From positions 1,297 to 65,296 of the forward strand of contig CAVAWT010000007.1 of NCBI GenBank assembly GCA_963592435.1: a stretch of 64,000 nt of DNA, written 5' to 3'. The position numbers and the translations under genes are program-made. The notes beneath the pieces were generated by a model. It saw nothing but the letters and a program-made list of their open reading frames with translations. It was not told the origin of the DNA and made no database searches. The stretch is from Oribacterium sp. Lineage in GTDB: Bacteria > Actinomycetota > Coriobacteriia > Coriobacteriales > Eggerthellaceae. Shown piece by piece: positions 4,464 to 32,834 of this stretch (position 1 is its first letter; each line of letters begins with the position of its first letter).

Positions 4464-5336
4464 ATGGATAGCAAAGTAAAAGAAGAGCTTAAGACAAGCG
4501 TTGACATGTCAGACGATGTGGCATCGGAAGATGGGATTGTGCAAGAAGAAATGGGCGCACAAGAGAACGCGAAAAAGAAGCATTCGAGTGGAGTTTCGCG
4601 AAGGGGATTGCTTGGAGGTGCTGCGGCGGCAGTGATAGTCGGAGCGGGCGGTGCTATGGCTGTTCCTCTGTTGAGTAATGCGGAAACAGGTGACTCAAGT
4701 GCAGCAACCAAACAAGACATCGCCAAACTTGAATATGAGTTGTCGCAGCTGACCAAGTCGTCGGACGATGCTGAGCTTGTATCTCATAAGGTTACCAAAA
4801 TTGACGAAACATGCACTGATGTTCAGTATCCATCAGCGAAAGCAGCATTTAATGCACTAGAGGGAAAGGTCAAGGTCGACCAAGGTAAGGAATATGCAGG
4901 ATACATCTTCAAAGTGAATGAAGAAGGCAATGTCATTGTTTCAAAGTTCTGCGATGACGAGTTGAGCGAGGTTTCCCTAAATCCTGTAGAGAATCGTGTT
5001 ATATTTAAGGAATTGCAAGATATTAAGCGATTGCTGAAGGAGCTTGACCTTGTTCCAACAAAGGATAGTAAACATGGCGTCGAGAGTGGCGGTGTTTACA
5101 AGACCTACCAGGAAACGACTGAGAAGAAAGATCTGAACGATTTGAAGATGGGTGTTAACTACAAATATACAGGGAAATTAATTGGCGGTGTTACATCCGC
5201 TGGTGATGAGGACCCATCGTTCTCAGTTAGAAAAATAGATACGACTCTTATGGCTATTAATCAGACAGATCCATCGATGGTATTTACAAGCGCAGACAAC
5301 GGTGGTACTTGGGGTGCCCCTTACGGAGGTTGGTAA
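4464..5336 (+). CDS. Putative exported protein with twin-arginine-type signal; paralog of 18093..18899
   Basis: ATG at 4464 lies about 10 nt after 'AAGGAA'; the ORF track starts at GTG 4425. 'SRRGLLGGAAAAVIVGAGGAMAVPLLSNA' is an RR motif plus hydrophobic region. Shares 'QYP.AKA', 'NPV.N' and 'Y.TYQET.E...L....LKMGVNY.YTG' with the 18093 ORF. Confidence 0.65.
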   Translation: MDSKVKEELKTSVDMSDDVASEDGIVQEEMGAQENAKKKHSSGVSRRGLLGGAAAAVIVGAGGAMAVPLLSNAETGDSSAATKQDIAKLEYELSQLTKSSDDAELVSHKVTKIDETCTDVQYPSAKAAFNALEGKVKVDQGKEYAGYIFKVNEEGNVIVSKFCDDELSEVSLNPVENRVIFKELQDIKRLLKELDLVPTKDSKHGVESGGVYKTYQETTEKKDLNDLKMGVNYKYTGKLIGGVTSAGDEDPSFSVRKIDTTLMAINQTDPSMVFTSADNGGTWGAPYGGW

Positions 5337-5394
5337 GAGGACAGTTTCTCAATTCATTGGAATCTTAAATTAGTAGATAAGGAGTTAAAAAGTA

Positions 5395-6060
5395 ATGAGT
5401 GAAACAGTATTCAAATTGGAAAAATTCGACGCTGCCGACTACGATAAATTTATATCTGACTATAAGCAAGATGTGAAGCTTGAGGAGAATGCTAAAGGTA
5501 AAGAGATCGACAAGGAAGATTTTAAGTTTGCTTTAAATCCAACAATCCTTTCACCCGTCGCAAAGGTTGATGTCAAAGGGCTTGAGTTTGAAGATAAGAA
5601 GAGATTTCTCAAATTGTGTTTGTCCTGCAACTGCATTGACAATGCAGTGATAGTTTCTAACTTGGTAGTTCTCGCTCAAGGCAGGTTGATTGAGGAAGAG
5701 TTGTATGAAAGTGAGGATGTCTTCTTTAATGACGACATTGAGTTCTTGGATATATGCACTGACTTGCGCGATGACATACTTGAATTCAATACTCAAATCG
5801 TGACATATTTTTTGGCGGCTCTAAAATCTATGGCCAGTCTGATTGGGGATGGTGCAGAGCACATACCGAACACTTTCTTTATCGCTTTACAGTCCTACAC
5901 AATGAAGAACATAAGCGTAGCTATGCAAAAGGTCAGCGTCAATTATGATGAGCTTCCTAAGGTATTAAATGGGGATGTCGTAATAAATTCAATTTGCGCA
6001 GAGGCGACTCTTGTGGGGGATTTTATGACAGACTTGATTAAACAAATAACTGATGAATAA
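5395..6060 (+). CDS. Hypothetical acidic cytoplasmic protein
   Basis: 221-aa ORF. ATG is preceded by 'AAGGAG' with an 8-nt spacer. No TM segment or signal peptide seen, and no motif I recognise. Confidence 0.6.
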   Translation: MSETVFKLEKFDAADYDKFISDYKQDVKLEENAKGKEIDKEDFKFALNPTILSPVAKVDVKGLEFEDKKRFLKLCLSCNCIDNAVIVSNLVVLAQGRLIEEELYESEDVFFNDDIEFLDICTDLRDDILEFNTQIVTYFLAALKSMASLIGDGAEHIPNTFFIALQSYTMKNISVAMQKVSVNYDELPKVLNGDVVINSICAEATLVGDFMTDLIKQITDE

Positions 6061-6083
6061 ATAATAAGGATAAGGTGAAGGAT

Positions 6084-30383: not shown

Positions 30384-30407
30384 TCTAGTGTTCTCCTTCT
30401 CGATCTG

Positions 30408-31238
30408 TCATGAGCAACACCTCATTTCGTCCTCCACAGAAAGAGAGAGCGCCATGACTGGAAAGTCTTTGTTCTGAGTTAGGATTTTCATATTGTCAGA
30501 ATGCATTTTTTTGCATTTTTCTATCATTGTTCTGCGTTCATCAATCATGTCTTTCCCTACCTCTAAAGGAAAGAGCCACCACTGAGTTGTGGATTCTAGC
30601 AGTCTTAGAGCAAGTTCAGTCTCTCCTTGTGGCACTTTCTTAGGCGCAAAAACAAATTTACCAAAAGCTGTATCGACCATAAAACTGTCTGCTTGGATGT
30701 TGCAGTTCCATCTTCCTGATTTATCGACTATTGCCAAAAAGGGTCTTGAGTGATCTGATTCAATGACGTTGCTACCAGCAACTGCAAACTCGAGATCTTC
30801 AACGAGCGTGTCTTGAGCAATACGCAGATATTCAACTTGGTTGATTCCAAATTTCTGCTTCAATTGGGCGATTAAGTGATGAAACCCCAGGTTGCTTTCT
30901 ACGCTACGTGTAATAATTGAAGCCCGTCTTCTTGCATCTTCCTGTGATATTTGAGCATCTTTAGAGCTAATTAGGTTTTCGTGCTCCTCAATGATGAGAA
31001 CATGTTCTCCTTTCTTCATTGAATAACATCGCCAATCTACTCCTATCTTTTGATATTCATCTGCAAAAGCGCTCAATAAAATCTTCTTGAACGTTACGCA
31101 AGGGTCAGAAAGCCAATGTGTGTGAATTCTGTAGGTGTTTGTTTGTGTTTCGAGGACAACATTATCCTTATCATCTAAGACACTAAATCGATTTAGTCCT
31201 AAAAGTGAAGCTATTTCTCTTACTGACAGTTCTGGCAT
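30408..31238 (-). CDS. Partner domain B protein, short subtype, most divergent copy (B8)
   Basis: 'NTYRIHT', 'EYQKIG', 'LEFAVAG', 'HSRPFLAIV', 'TAFGKFVF', 'QWWLFP'. It lies 6 nt downstream of CT2. Confidence 0.55.
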   Translation of the reverse strand: MPELSVREIASLLGLNRFSVLDDKDNVVLETQTNTYRIHTHWLSDPCVTFKKILLSAFADEYQKIGVDWRCYSMKKGEHVLIIEEHENLISSKDAQISQEDARRRASIITRSVESNLGFHHLIAQLKQKFGINQVEYLRIAQDTLVEDLEFAVAGSNVIESDHSRPFLAIVDKSGRWNCNIQADSFMVDTAFGKFVFAPKKVPQGETELALRLLESTTQWWLFPLEVGKDMIDERRTMIEKCKKMHSDNMKILTQNKDFPVMALSLSVEDEMRCCS

Positions 31239-31244
31239 AAATTA

Positions 31245-32834
31245 TTAATTAACCGTAATCATTGGAAAATTTCTTCTAGTTGCGGAGACATCGTAAAATT
31301 GATTCTCATCGACGAAGATGCTTACGATTTTAGGGACATCATTTAAATATAAAATTTCTTCTTGTAGACACCTTAAGTCATAAGGTGTTTCAACAATAGG
31401 AAACCCGTTTATGTTCAGCGAAGTGTTCACGAGGCATGGCACATGTGTTCTGTCAAACCAAGTCATGAGCAGATCATATAATTGGGGGTTGACTTTGCGT
31501 TTTAAGAGCTGTGGTCGTGTTGTGCCATCAACATGACAGACTGCTTGGAGTCTCGGTCTCCATTTTTCTTTTATTGTTAATGTTCGCAACATAAATTCAC
31601 ACATGTCAGTGTTTTCGACATCAAAGATTTTTGTAAAAAGCTCTTCTGGAACGATTGGTGCCAGTGGACGCCAGTTTTCTCTCCCCTTAATTTTGTTAAG
31701 TGACTCGAGCATTGATCTCTGTGATGGATCTGCAAGAAAGGATCTGTGACCAAGTGCCCTTGGTCCATACTCGGCGCATCCTTGAAACCATGCAATTACA
31801 GCGGAACTTTCAAGTTCCTTGCTAATAGTTAGGTAGGGTTCAAAAAGACATTCTCTTGGTCCTTCGACGTCCTCTGCTACGTAGTGCAGTCCAAGATAGG
31901 CTGATTCGAGTCTCTTTGAGCGCAAAGAAATTCCTCTTTTTTGCATCTCTTTAAATGTGGCTCCAATCGATTCGGCACACCCGTCAGATGGTTGTGGGCT
32001 TGCATAATAGTGTTTGAAATAACCAAGATCCACAATTCTAGAATTGGCAGGGCAATTGAGAATCCCTCCTCCGCTCAGACACAAGTTATCTGTTTGAATC
32101 CCTTTTTCTTCCAAGATTTCTTTTAGATATTTGATGAGACCCACAACAACATCCTCAAAATTTTTTTGGACTGTGAACGCAACATCTTTTGCAAGCATAA
32201 CGTCTTTTCTCTGAAGATGCTTGTCTCCAAGGAAACCCCGCAAATCGTTCTTTAAGAGTTCTTTGTCGCTGAAAAGGGTTTTTGTCTGCTCGTCGAAGTG
32301 CATATACTTTCGTCCATTGTTGCTACCATAAGCACTGAGCCCCATCATTTTGCCCTCGCCGAATGGTGTCTTGTGAATTATCAGAGAAGCCTTATGATAA
32401 AGGCCACATATTGATTGTTCATAAGGAAATTTTTTAAAGGTAATCGGTTTTTTGCCTTCTTCGATGTAGGCGAGAGTCGCACATTCCGTCTCGCCTCTCC
32501 CATCATTTATAAATACGGCGGAGTTTTTAAAACCACTTTGATAAAAACATTCATATATGTGGTTCTCGTGATGAATGTGTTCGGTTGCGTCTACCACAAT
32601 TTTTTTTAGATCATCATCTGAAATTTTTGCTTTTTGTTTAAATTTTTCTAAAGCAATTCGTGGCTTTTCACGGTCATGACGGCGATGAGACCATCTTTCC
32701 GCTTCGCTTGCAAATATAATATCTTGCCCGTCAAAGACAACACAGGCGTTGTCTTTTGTTCCACCATGGGGTTTGTTTATAGCATAGGGTCGCCCTGATC
32801 CCCAATTACTAAATGTGAATTTTAGCGAACACAC
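31245..32834 (-). CDS. Carbamoyltransferase, NodU/CmcH/TobZ family (CT2)
   Basis: Same blocks as CT1: 'FASEAERWSHRRHD', 'HHENHIYECFYQSGF', 'CLSGGGILNC', 'EYGPRALGHRSFLADP', 'IKGRENWRPLAPIV', 'CHVDGTTRPQ', 'VNTSLNINGFPIVETP'. GTG start lies 7 nt after 'AAAGGAGAG'. Confidence 0.8.
   Translation of the reverse strand: MCSLKFTFSNWGSGRPYAINKPHGGTKDNACVVFDGQDIIFASEAERWSHRRHDREKPRIALEKFKQKAKISDDDLKKIVVDATEHIHHENHIYECFYQSGFKNSAVFINDGRGETECATLAYIEEGKKPITFKKFPYEQSICGLYHKASLIIHKTPFGEGKMMGLSAYGSNNGRKYMHFDEQTKTLFSDKELLKNDLRGFLGDKHLQRKDVMLAKDVAFTVQKNFEDVVVGLIKYLKEILEEKGIQTDNLCLSGGGILNCPANSRIVDLGYFKHYYASPQPSDGCAESIGATFKEMQKRGISLRSKRLESAYLGLHYVAEDVEGPRECLFEPYLTISKELESSAVIAWFQGCAEYGPRALGHRSFLADPSQRSMLESLNKIKGRENWRPLAPIVPEELFTKIFDVENTDMCEFMLRTLTIKEKWRPRLQAVCHVDGTTRPQLLKRKVNPQLYDLLMTWFDRTHVPCLVNTSLNINGFPIVETPYDLRCLQEEILYLNDVPKIVSIFVDENQFYDVSATRRNFPMITVN

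Follow-up and report, generated by a model that had tools for sequence, protein, structure and literature searches.

We analyzed a 64,000-nucleotide stretch of contig CAVAWT010000007.1 (hereafter, the window), in which an island of 24 open reading frames (ORFs) occupies positions 4425–32834, bounded by the gene for a surface adhesin (31–4410) and by mraZ (33333). The island encodes two proteins, here called carriers, with runs consisting only of serine and cysteine, together with a small protein designated P2, eleven copies of a divergent radical S-adenosylmethionine (SAM) family designated A, and eight copies of a domain designated B. The genes for the carriers, P2, and A also lie side by side at other loci, most of them on large phage contigs, and we consider it moderately probable that they form a system derived from phages, in which the Ser/Cys tracts of fiber- or adhesin-associated proteins are matured. 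The genes are listed below with their positions in the window and their strand. Unless another source is named, the A copies were assigned by all-against-all BLASTP and a motif table, and the free-standing B copies by BLASTP.

31–4410, forward: surface adhesin; eight Flg_new domains, YDG, and MBG_2 (Pfam), with a C-terminal anchor resembling a sorting signal
4425–5336, forward: RR1; twin-arginine translocation (TAT) signal (17.5 bits with TIGR01409, whose cut-off is 16.7) and fiber-like body
5395–6060, forward: P2; small protein (called helical), companion of the tailed genes, recognized with a window-derived hidden Markov model (HMM)
6075–6839, forward: Ser/Cys-tailed carrier a; N-domain of about 215 amino acids, run at 6702–6806, then IFIAYMNLGR at 6807–6836
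6855–7592, forward: Ser/Cys-tailed carrier b; run at 7464–7559, then WFIAFMNLVG at 7560–7589
7616–8575, forward: A1, radical-SAM type; CNGACKFC at residue 12
8454–10676, forward: B-A4 fusion with intact A4 domain; true start likely near 8565, gene call of 703 amino acids
10680–11630, forward: A3, radical-SAM type
11665–12771, forward: A4, radical-SAM type
12783–13676, forward: free-standing B (SYG.F.F / WWLF subtype)
13694–15778, forward: B with degenerate A4; CxxxCxxC and GGE gone, C-terminal C..H..CxxC retained
15870–17018, forward: A4, radical-SAM type; used as search query
17063–18010, forward: free-standing B; copy modeled with AlphaFold2 (AF2; predicted local distance difference test, pLDDT, 75.4; predicted template modeling score, pTM, 0.71)
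18087–18899, forward: RR2; paralog of RR1 (30% identity) with the hydrophobic segment of the TAT signal deleted (alignment)
19007–19888, forward: A2, radical-SAM type
20039–21499, forward: BspA-type leucine-rich-repeat (LRR) protein; Pfam LRR_5, E = 8e-45, with phage PHROG hits
21646–23217, forward: carbamoyltransferase 1 (NodU/CmcH type); Carbam_trans_C 6.7e-50, Carbam_trans_N 2.6e-23, phrog_1601 1.6e-76
23302–24249, reverse: A2, radical-SAM type, second copy
24198–25328, reverse: A4, radical-SAM type
25399–26520, forward: free-standing B (NKFDDYA / LLDDADF subtype)
26552–27406, forward: free-standing B
27585–28730, reverse: A4, radical-SAM type
28935–30383, reverse: B with degenerate A4 remnant lacking the cluster motif (BLASTP, motif table)
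30408–31238, reverse: free-standing B, the most degenerate copy; DDYA and LLDD motifs lost
31245–32834, reverse: carbamoyltransferase 2 (Pfam); 52% identical to carbamoyltransferase 1

Gene content of the island

All-against-all BLASTP and the motif table sorted the island into 11 A copies, 8 B copies, 2 carbamoyltransferases, 2 RR proteins, 1 LRR protein, 1 P2, and 2 tailed carriers. An earlier note on this DNA had counted 24 ORFs from the adhesin to mraZ, and our recount agreed. The eleven ORFs to which it had assigned the A core were recovered by BLASTP and the motif table (nine intact and two lacking the cluster motif), as were its eight B-domain ORFs by BLASTP, and both of the proteins that it had called NodU/CmcH-type carbamoyltransferases contain the two expected Pfam domains above the gathering threshold and are 52% identical to each other. 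Two of its descriptions had to be amended. The two RR-signal proteins are paralogs as claimed, but only RR1 has a full TAT signal; similarly, the two runs of Ser and Cys are as pure as described, but they are not terminal, because a conserved 10-residue end comes after each of them. Its statement that a SPASM domain, an ABC exporter, a protease, a regulator, an integrase, and a transposase are absent agrees with our Pfam, NCBIfam, and PADLOC scans.

The guanine-plus-cytosine (G+C) content of the island is 37–40%, i.e., 4–6 points lower than that of its flanks (43–45%), and an ordinary dcw cell-division cluster is situated downstream. All ORFs of the island are intact and densely packed. In the region 4411–18086, adjacent genes overlap or are separated by 3–91 nucleotides, and the distance from the stop codon of the adhesin gene to the first gene is 14 nucleotides. 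Promoter and terminator scans of the island gave the same counts as shuffled sequence and were uninformative on operon structure. The intergenic gaps of the window contained no small Cys-rich ORFs and no concealed short precursor peptides. Domains of integrases, capsid proteins, portals, or terminases were found in none of the 24 ORFs by Pfam and PHROG.

Two simple classifications of the island were rejected. It was rejected as an integrated prophage, because the window contains no integrase or structural genes and the flanks are the adhesin gene and the dcw cluster. It was also rejected as an anti-phage defense system, because PADLOC gave just N-terminal pVip hits (E = 5e-6 to 2e-3) that extend over 50–130 residues. 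Two tRNA genes are present in the window (59327–59409 and 61510–61599), downstream of the dcw cluster and distant from the borders of the island.

Ser/Cys-tailed carrier proteins

The runs of the two carriers are 35 and 32 amino acids long, with no residue other than Ser and Cys inside. All six Ser codons occur in the runs, which indicates that the composition is held at the protein level, and a simple DNA repeat as the source of the runs was rejected on the same ground. The carriers belong to a family of at least 307 clusters at 90% identity, whose members are 210–270 amino acids long and have a common tail plan. In 120 family members, the median length of the run was 25 residues (range, 10–53) and the median number of Cys was 3, some runs having a single Cys. 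About 86% of the tract is Ser, Thr is absent from the runs, and the Cys–Cys spacings peak at 4–5 and 9. The run is followed by a fixed end of 8–9 residues, x-F-I-A-Y-[FM]-[NK]-[LI]-x, and conservation is highest in this part.

The AF2 model of carrier a (pLDDT 75) predicted a confidently folded N-domain and a disordered tail. A fold search with the N-domain gave no match (best E = 0.34 in PDB and 0.5 in BFVD), a profile of the carrier family retrieved only low-complexity noise from the PDB sequences, and the carriers had no match in Pfam. Most phage loci described below also encode a second type of carrier paralog. Furthermore, paralogs of the N-domain that lack the tail occur beside a tailed copy in L019 (10698–11204), L023 (10544–11071), L034 (9341–9937), and L041 (443–1060), where L and P numbers denote compared loci and proteins outside the window. 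These tail-less paralogs suggest that the carrier N-domains form a hetero-oligomer.

Divergent radical-SAM enzymes of the A family

Both CxxxCxxC and GG[ED] were found in 9 of the 11 A copies, namely those starting at 7616, 8454 (C-terminal half), 10680, 11665, 15870, 19007, 23302, 24198, and 27585, whereas the C-terminal halves of the ORFs at 13694 and 28935 contain neither motif. All 11 copies have a C-terminal C..H..CxxC (3–4 Cys and a His), a sequence that fits a cluster or a zinc site alike. In 27 members sampled from all A subfamilies, CxxxCxxC, G65, and G66 were invariant and E67 was at least 90% conserved, and no Cys beyond the two motifs was conserved in all subfamilies. The public annotation of a near-identical contig from a metagenome-assembled genome (MAG) starts A1 84 nucleotides later (291 instead of 319 amino acids; window 7616–7699), so that the CNGACKFC motif (residues 12–19) is cut off.

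To place the family, we pooled the 27 members from all groups into one profile and compared it with PDB. The best match was YydG (8ai1; E = 3.4e-10), which extended over 178 positions (3–180), included the invariant S-Y-D motif, and stopped before the region of Cys223, the hydrogen-donating cysteine of YydG. The next matches were a radical-SAM core protein (5e-5) and viperin-like proteins (approximately 2e-4), with at most the N-terminal third covered. Single A groups matched the YydG fragment weakly (E = 3e-4 to 1e-2), and a profile of A4 only had no match among the PDB sequences, i.e., YydG was reached by the pooled profile only. Among the PHROGs, A matched phrog_1802 (E = 2e-10 to 2e-7), which is named “radical SAM domain-containing protein”. 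A precomputed PF04055 hit is present on some A homologs elsewhere. In NCBIfam, the commonest weak match was prokaryotic viperin, over the first 60–70 residues. The YydG model TIGR04078 was matched by 1 of the 27 members (E = 9.7e-5, below its cut-off), the PapB model by 3 of 27 (best E = 5e-6), and TIGR04115 (CXXX) by 1 of 27 (1e-3), the last two far under the cut-off. The Pfam scan of the window found no SPASM or Fer4 domain above threshold. YydG abstracts the C-alpha hydrogen in a ribosomal peptide, returns a hydrogen from an enzyme cysteine, and contains an additional [4Fe-4S] cluster at its C-terminus; with the sactisynthase AlbA, a radical of this type is instead captured by a substrate cysteine to give a thioether (PMC5682303).

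The A family splits into the orthologous groups A1, A2, A3, and A4. A1, A3, and A4 occur in nearly every complete module and A2 is optional. The A1 of the window is 42–57% identical to phage A1 and 75–76% identical to A1 of L021 and L022, and only about 20% identical to A2, A3, and A4; the A4 copies of the window are 50–63% identical to one another, and identity between subfamilies is about 20%. Judged by these identities, the A groups predate the spread of the module. Since A1 is more similar across phages and the window than the subfamilies are to each other, the groups would correspond to several distinct steps.

Occurrence of the module in phages and bacteria

HMMs from the window paralogs were run on every compared locus, and the loci were reached by three independent routes: via A (L003, L006/L008, L010, L011, L013, and L016), via the tailed protein (L018–L023), and via the DNA pattern of the tail end alone (L026/L033, L028–L030, L034, L035, L037, and L039–L041). 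The results showed that about 19 distinct loci contain one or more tailed proteins, P2, and 1–6 A paralogs in adjacent positions. Tailed genes without a neighboring A were found only where the contig is no longer than 1.3 kb or where the stored stretch ends (L027). Most module loci are on phage contigs of 100–330 kb, just after genes for tail fibers, baseplate proteins, or LRR proteins. A search with the A4 copy at 15870–17018 yielded 270 scored homologs. The window itself had a 99% match at the protein level in contig CAVCKJ010000008.1 of MAG GCA_963602315.1, and A4 homologs at 45–50% identity were on contigs of 130–260 kb with genes for tail fiber, lysozyme, peptidases M15 and M23, integrase, and dCMP deaminase. 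Relatives of A4 were found at four loci among 185,579 species genomes and at four loci in IMG/VR, in which the tail DNA pattern occurred on three contigs. A tblastn search of 50,697 GenBank phage records with A4, A1, and a phage carrier gave no match.

In L006, the module runs in the order tail-fiber-like proteins, P2 homolog, two tailed proteins, A2, A1, two MiaB-like proteins, two A4, and A3, and the tailed proteins are 229 amino acids (ending SSSSLFIAYFNIG) and 222 amino acids (ending CSSSAFIAYFNLAK) long. The upstream neighbors of the module are members of tail-fiber PHROGs in L003, a gp25-like baseplate gene and a 1108-amino-acid protein in L018, and Laminin_G_3 proteins in L020. Several phage modules encode proteins similar to methylthiotransferases of the MiaB/RimO family that lack a TRAM domain, and these are fused to A in L020 and L006. 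In L006 (9225–11854), the second MiaB-like gene is split and its C-terminal part is fused in frame to A4 (617 amino acids), and in L008 (7246–9979) the MiaB-like protein and A4 are encoded by separate genes (548 and 365 amino acids).

Two further observations concern the surroundings of phage modules. On the 327-kb phage contig of L018, the region 12849–19279, between the module and the tail-sheath gene, contains five DNA methyltransferase genes (N6_N4_Mtase and MethyltransfD12), a metallophosphatase gene, and a gene for a free-standing PP-binding carrier protein. In L023 (588–4090), a reverse-transcriptase gene (RVT_1) is located beside the gene for a 686-amino-acid protein with a weak RR/fiber-like motif, a few kilobases from the module, and may belong to a diversity-generating retroelement acting on the fiber gene.

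On two bacterial contigs, L021 and L022 (43–45% G+C), the order of the window is repeated gene for gene: a giant anchored ORF, RR, P2, two tailed proteins, A1, B-A4, A3, and further B and A4 copies. This order is kept at 40–76% protein identity, and a bacterial clade thus shares the first half of the island (to 18010) as a conserved locus. The other half (18087–32834) is an extra set, consisting of RR2, A2, LRR, carbamoyltransferase, A2, A4, B, B, A4, a B-A4 remnant, B, and carbamoyltransferase. In the three bacterial loci (the window, L021, and L022), the tailed genes have been kept with the enzymes and no other phage gene is present. Additionally, two contigs in a MAG labeled “uncultured Senegalimassilia sp.” (L014 and L015) have A4 homologs, 62% and 44% identical, at the contig edges. 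Their G+C content is 43–47%, which we take to be below that expected for Senegalimassilia, and they may have been mis-binned and come from the same lineage as the window.

These comparisons alter the earlier picture of the island in several respects. The earlier note had described a co-amplified family, but the paralogs are too old, by the identities given above, to result from a recent amplification. The island is also not specific to the strain: its first half is syntenic with two other bacterial contigs. The context of phage modules and of fibers and adhesins was missing from the note. On the other hand, the co-occurrence across genomes that it had proposed to look for was found, with tailed proteins beside A in every locus with enough flanking DNA, and no component matched a characterized pathway in Pfam, NCBIfam, PHROG, PADLOC, or PDB. 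Its central proposal of a dedicated system for the tailed proteins is therefore backed in part, by co-occurrence, by the lack of a known pathway, and by the peptide-modifying relative YydG, and modification of the tail is the part of it that we infer.

B domain and partner genes

The eight B members are the N-terminal halves of the ORFs at 8454, 13694, and 28935 and the ORFs at 12783, 17063, 25399, 26552, and 30408. B is a closed small family, with 164 representatives among 1.84 billion proteins and no tail of distant relatives, and it had no sequence match in Pfam, NCBIfam, or PDB. When the AF2 model of the copy at 17063 was compared with PDB by Foldseek, matches 1–26 and nearly all of the top 50 were kinases; these matches (OspG, APH, Rio2, ArkI, and Stk1) were weak, with E = 0.02–0.2 (0.02–0.1 for the top hits) and template modeling (TM) scores of 0.2–0.46. 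Across 157 B members, the candidates for the beta-3 Lys, the catalytic Asp, and the metal-binding Asp of kinases are K in FYK (142/149), D in DYA (148/157), and D in LLDD (119/156). The spacing of these Lys and Asp residues is shorter than in canonical kinases, and the window copies at 12783, 17063, and 30408 lack one or both Asp. B also occurs in the phage-like loci L016, L023, and L041, at times fused to A, and B-A4 fusions are found in the window, L021, L022, L041, P0088, and P0116. A protein that resembles 13694–15778 (B with an A remnant) is encoded in L022. The B fused to an A4 without the cluster motif probably re-uses the substrate-binding half of A4.

The orthologs of RR1 in L021 and L022 bear SRRGLLGGAAAVVVGAGG, and the TAT signal is kept there. 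In the alignment, RR2 retains the twin arginines and has lost the hydrophobic segment, and it may no longer be exported. RR1 and a 577-amino-acid phage protein encoded upstream of P2 (L026/L033) have a 55-amino-acid stretch in common, ST..QYPSAKA.Y. P2 had no match in Pfam, NCBIfam, PHROG, or PDB, and a profile search yielded weak noise resembling tetratricopeptide repeats. Both carbamoyltransferases scored above the Pfam gathering thresholds for PF02543 and PF16861 (83 and 169 bits for 21646–23217; 86.5 and 172 bits for 31245–32834). Against the NodU model NF041651 they reached 121–132 bits, below its cut-off of 1000, and they are closer to phage phrog_1601 (1.6e-76 for 21646–23217). A homolog of these enzymes closes the phage module in L010/L035. 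In the phage locus L039, LRR_5 proteins are encoded directly upstream of P2. The domain scan for the adhesin covered L022 and the window, and in L022 the same architecture (Flg_new, YDG, and MBG_2) was found directly upstream of the orthologous module; the giant upstream ORF of L021 is known by its C-terminal anchor of the LTSTGD type.

Proposed function and alternative explanations

The reading that we favor, with a confidence somewhat above even, is that the module is of phage origin and matures the Ser/Cys tracts of proteins associated with fibers or adhesins. A joint function of the carriers, P2, and A is the simplest explanation for the strict adjacency observed by three routes, for gene junctions that are short or overlap, and for the fact that bacteria have retained the carriers. 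Translational coupling is suggested by genes that overlap or lie 3–25 nucleotides apart. That the tract would be the substrate is suggested by the closest relative of A, which modifies a peptide, by the purity and predicted disorder of the tract together with its fixed end, and by the presence of several old enzyme groups. The setting beside phage fibers or bacterial adhesins argues against a bacteriocin-type cluster of the kind that makes RiPPs (peptides that are produced by the ribosome and modified after translation), and it also explains why protease, exporter, and immunity genes are missing.

According to this maturation model, the substrates would be the carriers at 6075–6839 and 6855–7592, each with a folded N-domain and a disordered Ser/Cys tract, and the xFIAY[FM][NK][LI] cap would probably serve as a recognition or docking element. 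In the cytoplasm, at least three old YydG-like groups (A1, A3, and A4, with A2 optional) would use SAM-derived radicals to abstract hydrogen from the tract. By analogy with YydG, attack at C-alpha would be most likely, giving D-residues, thioether links from the Cys sulfur to C-alpha, or both. The main alternative would be oxidation of Ser or Cys at C-beta to formylglycine, which would explain the restriction to Ser and Cys. Ser and Cys are also the two partners of lanthionine, a partnership that would fit a Ser kinase. Tailoring specific to a lineage could then follow, in which the kinase-like B domains would phosphorylate Ser hydroxyl groups, the carbamoyltransferases would carry out O- or S-carbamoylation, and, in phages, the MiaB/RimO-like methylthiotransferases would act. 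P2 would be an obligate partner that serves as a chaperone or as a recognition subunit. The matured carriers would act with the receptor-binding protein encoded just upstream, which in phages would be a tail fiber, baseplate, or LRR protein assembled in the cytoplasm, and in the bacterium of the window the giant Flg_new adhesin together with the fiber-like RR1. With its TAT signal, RR1 could take the folded, already modified complex across the membrane as a hitch-hiker, and the presence of this signal is in keeping with export that takes place after the product has been folded and modified in the cytoplasm.

Several observations weigh against this model. The numbers of A and tailed genes are not linked: L018 has one A and four tailed genes, and in L019 four A genes accompany one tailed gene and one tail-less paralog. 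In L017 (1–12856; JAFZWP010000001.1, 245 kb, a “Bacilli bacterium” rumen MAG), genes for two carbamoyltransferases, a GT2 glycosyltransferase, an NDP-sugar 4,6-dehydratase, and a DegT/DnrJ aminotransferase lie interspersed among seven A genes, and no tailed gene was found within the 21 kb read; the A-type enzymes of at least that locus may be engaged in sugar chemistry. The A family is itself divergent. The Pfam model Radical_SAM (PF04055) matched the window copies at 14.5–24.8 bits (E = 3e-5 to 4e-2), below the gathering threshold of 29.5, no A member reached any NCBIfam cut-off, and the link to YydG is remote at the sequence level. The AF2 model only weakly suggests a protein-kinase-like fold for B, and several of its fold matches are aminoglycoside kinases. 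Known carbamoyltransferases of the NodU/CmcH type act on small molecules. The existence of tail-less paralogs implies that the carrier N-domain has a role of its own. Finally, what has been shown is the content and paralogy of the genes, their synteny at other loci, the remote homology to YydG, and the layout of the tail; the tract as substrate, its chemistry, the part played by P2, and the TAT hitch-hiking are inferred.

In the main rival explanation, A, the carbamoyltransferases, and B build or tailor a sugar or another small molecule, and the tailed proteins are accessories of fibers or baseplates whose tract is at most an acceptor for O- or S-glycosylation or a flexible or metal-binding linker, and not a radical-SAM substrate. 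It draws on the gene mixture of L017, on the aminoglycoside phosphotransferases among the fold matches of B, and on viperin, an enzyme that acts on nucleotides and to which the N-terminal part of A is weakly similar. Enzymes of the NodU/CmcH/TobZ type carbamoylate sugars and antibiotics, and Ser-rich C-terminal extensions of mycobacteriophage virion proteins are reportedly glycosylated (work attributed to Freeman and colleagues in 2023). However, only one of about 20 loci contained glycosyltransferase or nucleotide-sugar genes; there were none in L021, in L022, in the window, or in the core modules of phages. Moreover, a peptide is the substrate of YydG, the best relative of A among solved structures, and a glycan acceptor would tolerate Thr, which is absent from the runs. 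We regard the sugar explanation as rather improbable. An iron–sulfur (Fe-S) or sulfur helper, in which the tract would be a Cys scaffold or a sacrificial donor of sulfur or clusters for A and for the MiaB-like enzymes, which use up a cluster sulfur, would account for the recurrence of Cys spacings of 4–5 and 9, for the strict co-occurrence of the tailed genes with Fe-S enzymes, and for the methylthiotransferase-like genes in several phage modules. A tract of about 86% Ser with a median of 3 Cys, and at times one, is nevertheless hard to reconcile with such a role, known scaffolds hold their Cys in folded domains, and neither the hydrophobic end nor the fiber/adhesin neighborhood would be explained, so that we give this explanation very little weight.

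Slightly less improbable, but still unlikely in our view, is a classical RiPP, with the N-domain as an oversized leader and the modified tract cut off and released as a toxin, signal, or antimicrobial, on the pattern of proteusins or SCIFF/ranthipeptides. A Cys-containing C-terminal core does adjoin several radical-SAM enzymes here, some A members weakly match the PapB, CXXX-repeat, and HxsC maturase models, and large leaders are known for proteusins (PMC5682303). Nevertheless, no locus contained a protease, exporter, or immunity gene, and the module always lies among structural genes of phages or behind adhesins. The carrier N-domain is conserved and folded and has tail-less paralogs, and conservation is highest in the motif at the far C-terminus, unlike in a free core peptide. 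Least probable of all, and in our opinion hardly tenable, is a chance neighborhood or prophage remnant, i.e., decaying cargo whose linkage is merely historical. Two A copies and several B copies have indeed lost conserved motifs, and the G+C content of the island is 4–6 points below that of its flanks, but all ORFs are intact and closely spaced, L021 and L022 preserve the gene order at 40–76% identity, the core is found again on many phage contigs that are unrelated, and no integrase or structural gene is present in the window.

Returning to the maturation model, we also put forward, tentatively and as a possibility to which we give clearly less credence than to the model itself, a broader interpretation. 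The module may represent a new class of protein modification tied to host attachment, in which carriers that large phages encode next to the tail fibers have their (Ser/Cys)n tract rebuilt by at least three radical-SAM types into a non-proteinogenic polymer, and in which a bacterial lineage has captured the module behind giant adhesins and added kinase-like and carbamoyl-transfer steps and TAT export. Possible products would be a ladder of D-residues or thioethers resistant to proteases of the gut, or a tail of poly-formylglycine that forms covalent bonds with amines on the target surface.

No family in Pfam, NCBIfam, PHROG, or PADLOC explains the gene set. Neither a solved structure nor a paper describing the carrier, P2, B, or the module turned up in our searches, and the literature search yielded just general works on YydG and on protein modification by phages. 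The maturation of a Cys-containing C-terminal tract of a ribosomal product by radical-SAM enzymes is already known. What is new here is the tract of Ser and Cys only on protein-sized carriers, the set of several enzyme groups, the fiber/adhesin setting, and the kinase-like partner. This analysis defines four unannotated families, namely the tailed carrier, P2, B, and A with its four orthologous groups, as a recurrent module of large uncultured phages that has been taken up by a bacterial lineage. Should the tract be the substrate, the range of radical-SAM peptide chemistry would come to include protein-sized carriers borne by virions or by the surface of cells, phages and bacteria would have a new way of altering their attachment organelles, and several new enzymes acting on plain Ser/Cys sequence, attractive for protein engineering, would become available.

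Comparison with known systems

A precedent for carbamoylation of a protein tail is HypF, a Kae1/YrdC-type carbamoyltransferase homologous to NodU/CmcH, which carbamoylates the C-terminal Cys of HypE. By this precedent, the carbamoyltransferases of the window could act on the Cys-bearing tail. They differ from HypF in having the two-domain layout of NodU/CmcH without the acylphosphatase and zinc-finger domains, and there is no dehydratase resembling HypE. Phage-encoded enzymes are also said, in the 2023 work of Freeman and colleagues, to glycosylate a hydroxyl-rich C-terminal extension of structural proteins. In that mycobacteriophage system, the enzymes are glycosyltransferases, the targets are capsid and tail-tube proteins, Cys is not known to be required, and no bacterial counterpart is known. 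To our knowledge, the anaerobic sulfatase-maturating enzymes (anSMEs) are the only radical-SAM enzymes that take both Ser and Cys at one site, converting them to formylglycine, and this likeness offers a chemical reason for a tract of Ser and Cys only. The anSMEs are SPASM enzymes that modify one residue in C/S-x-P-x-R, and the motif, the SPASM domain, and a sequence match are all absent here.

The SPASM maturases, e.g., PapB of the SCIFF/ranthipeptide type, the CXXX-repeat enzymes (TIGR04115), and sactisynthases such as AlbA, resemble the present system in that a Cys-containing C-terminal core is encoded beside a radical-SAM enzyme. The module differs from them in that it has no 7-Cys block, a tract of about 86% Ser, protein-sized carriers, and several orthologous groups of enzymes. 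A thioether is a plausible outcome when a substrate Cys adjoins the C-alpha radical (PMC5682303). Proteusins such as polytheonamide share with the carriers a large N-terminal non-core region, and several radical-SAM enzymes act on numerous residues within a single tract (PMC5682303). In contrast to the proteusin system with PoyD and C-methyltransferases, A shows no specific similarity to those enzymes, and there is no NHLP or Nif11 leader, dehydratase, or N-methyltransferase; unlike in proteusins, the product of the present module probably stays attached to the protein.

The closest comparison is with the epipeptide system of B. subtilis (yydFGHIJ; TIGR04078; 8ai1). Like A, YydG is a radical-SAM enzyme, in its case acting on a ribosomal peptide, and A also ends in a Cys/His motif. 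Its substrate, however, is a 49-amino-acid peptide with hydrophobic targets, and its operon includes a peptidase and an ABC transporter; such parts (a short precursor, a peptidase, or an ABC transporter) were found neither in the window nor in the related loci. The module described here instead combines proteins of 210–270 amino acids that bear a Ser/Cys tract with 3–11 enzyme paralogs, in the context of phage fibers or bacterial adhesins.

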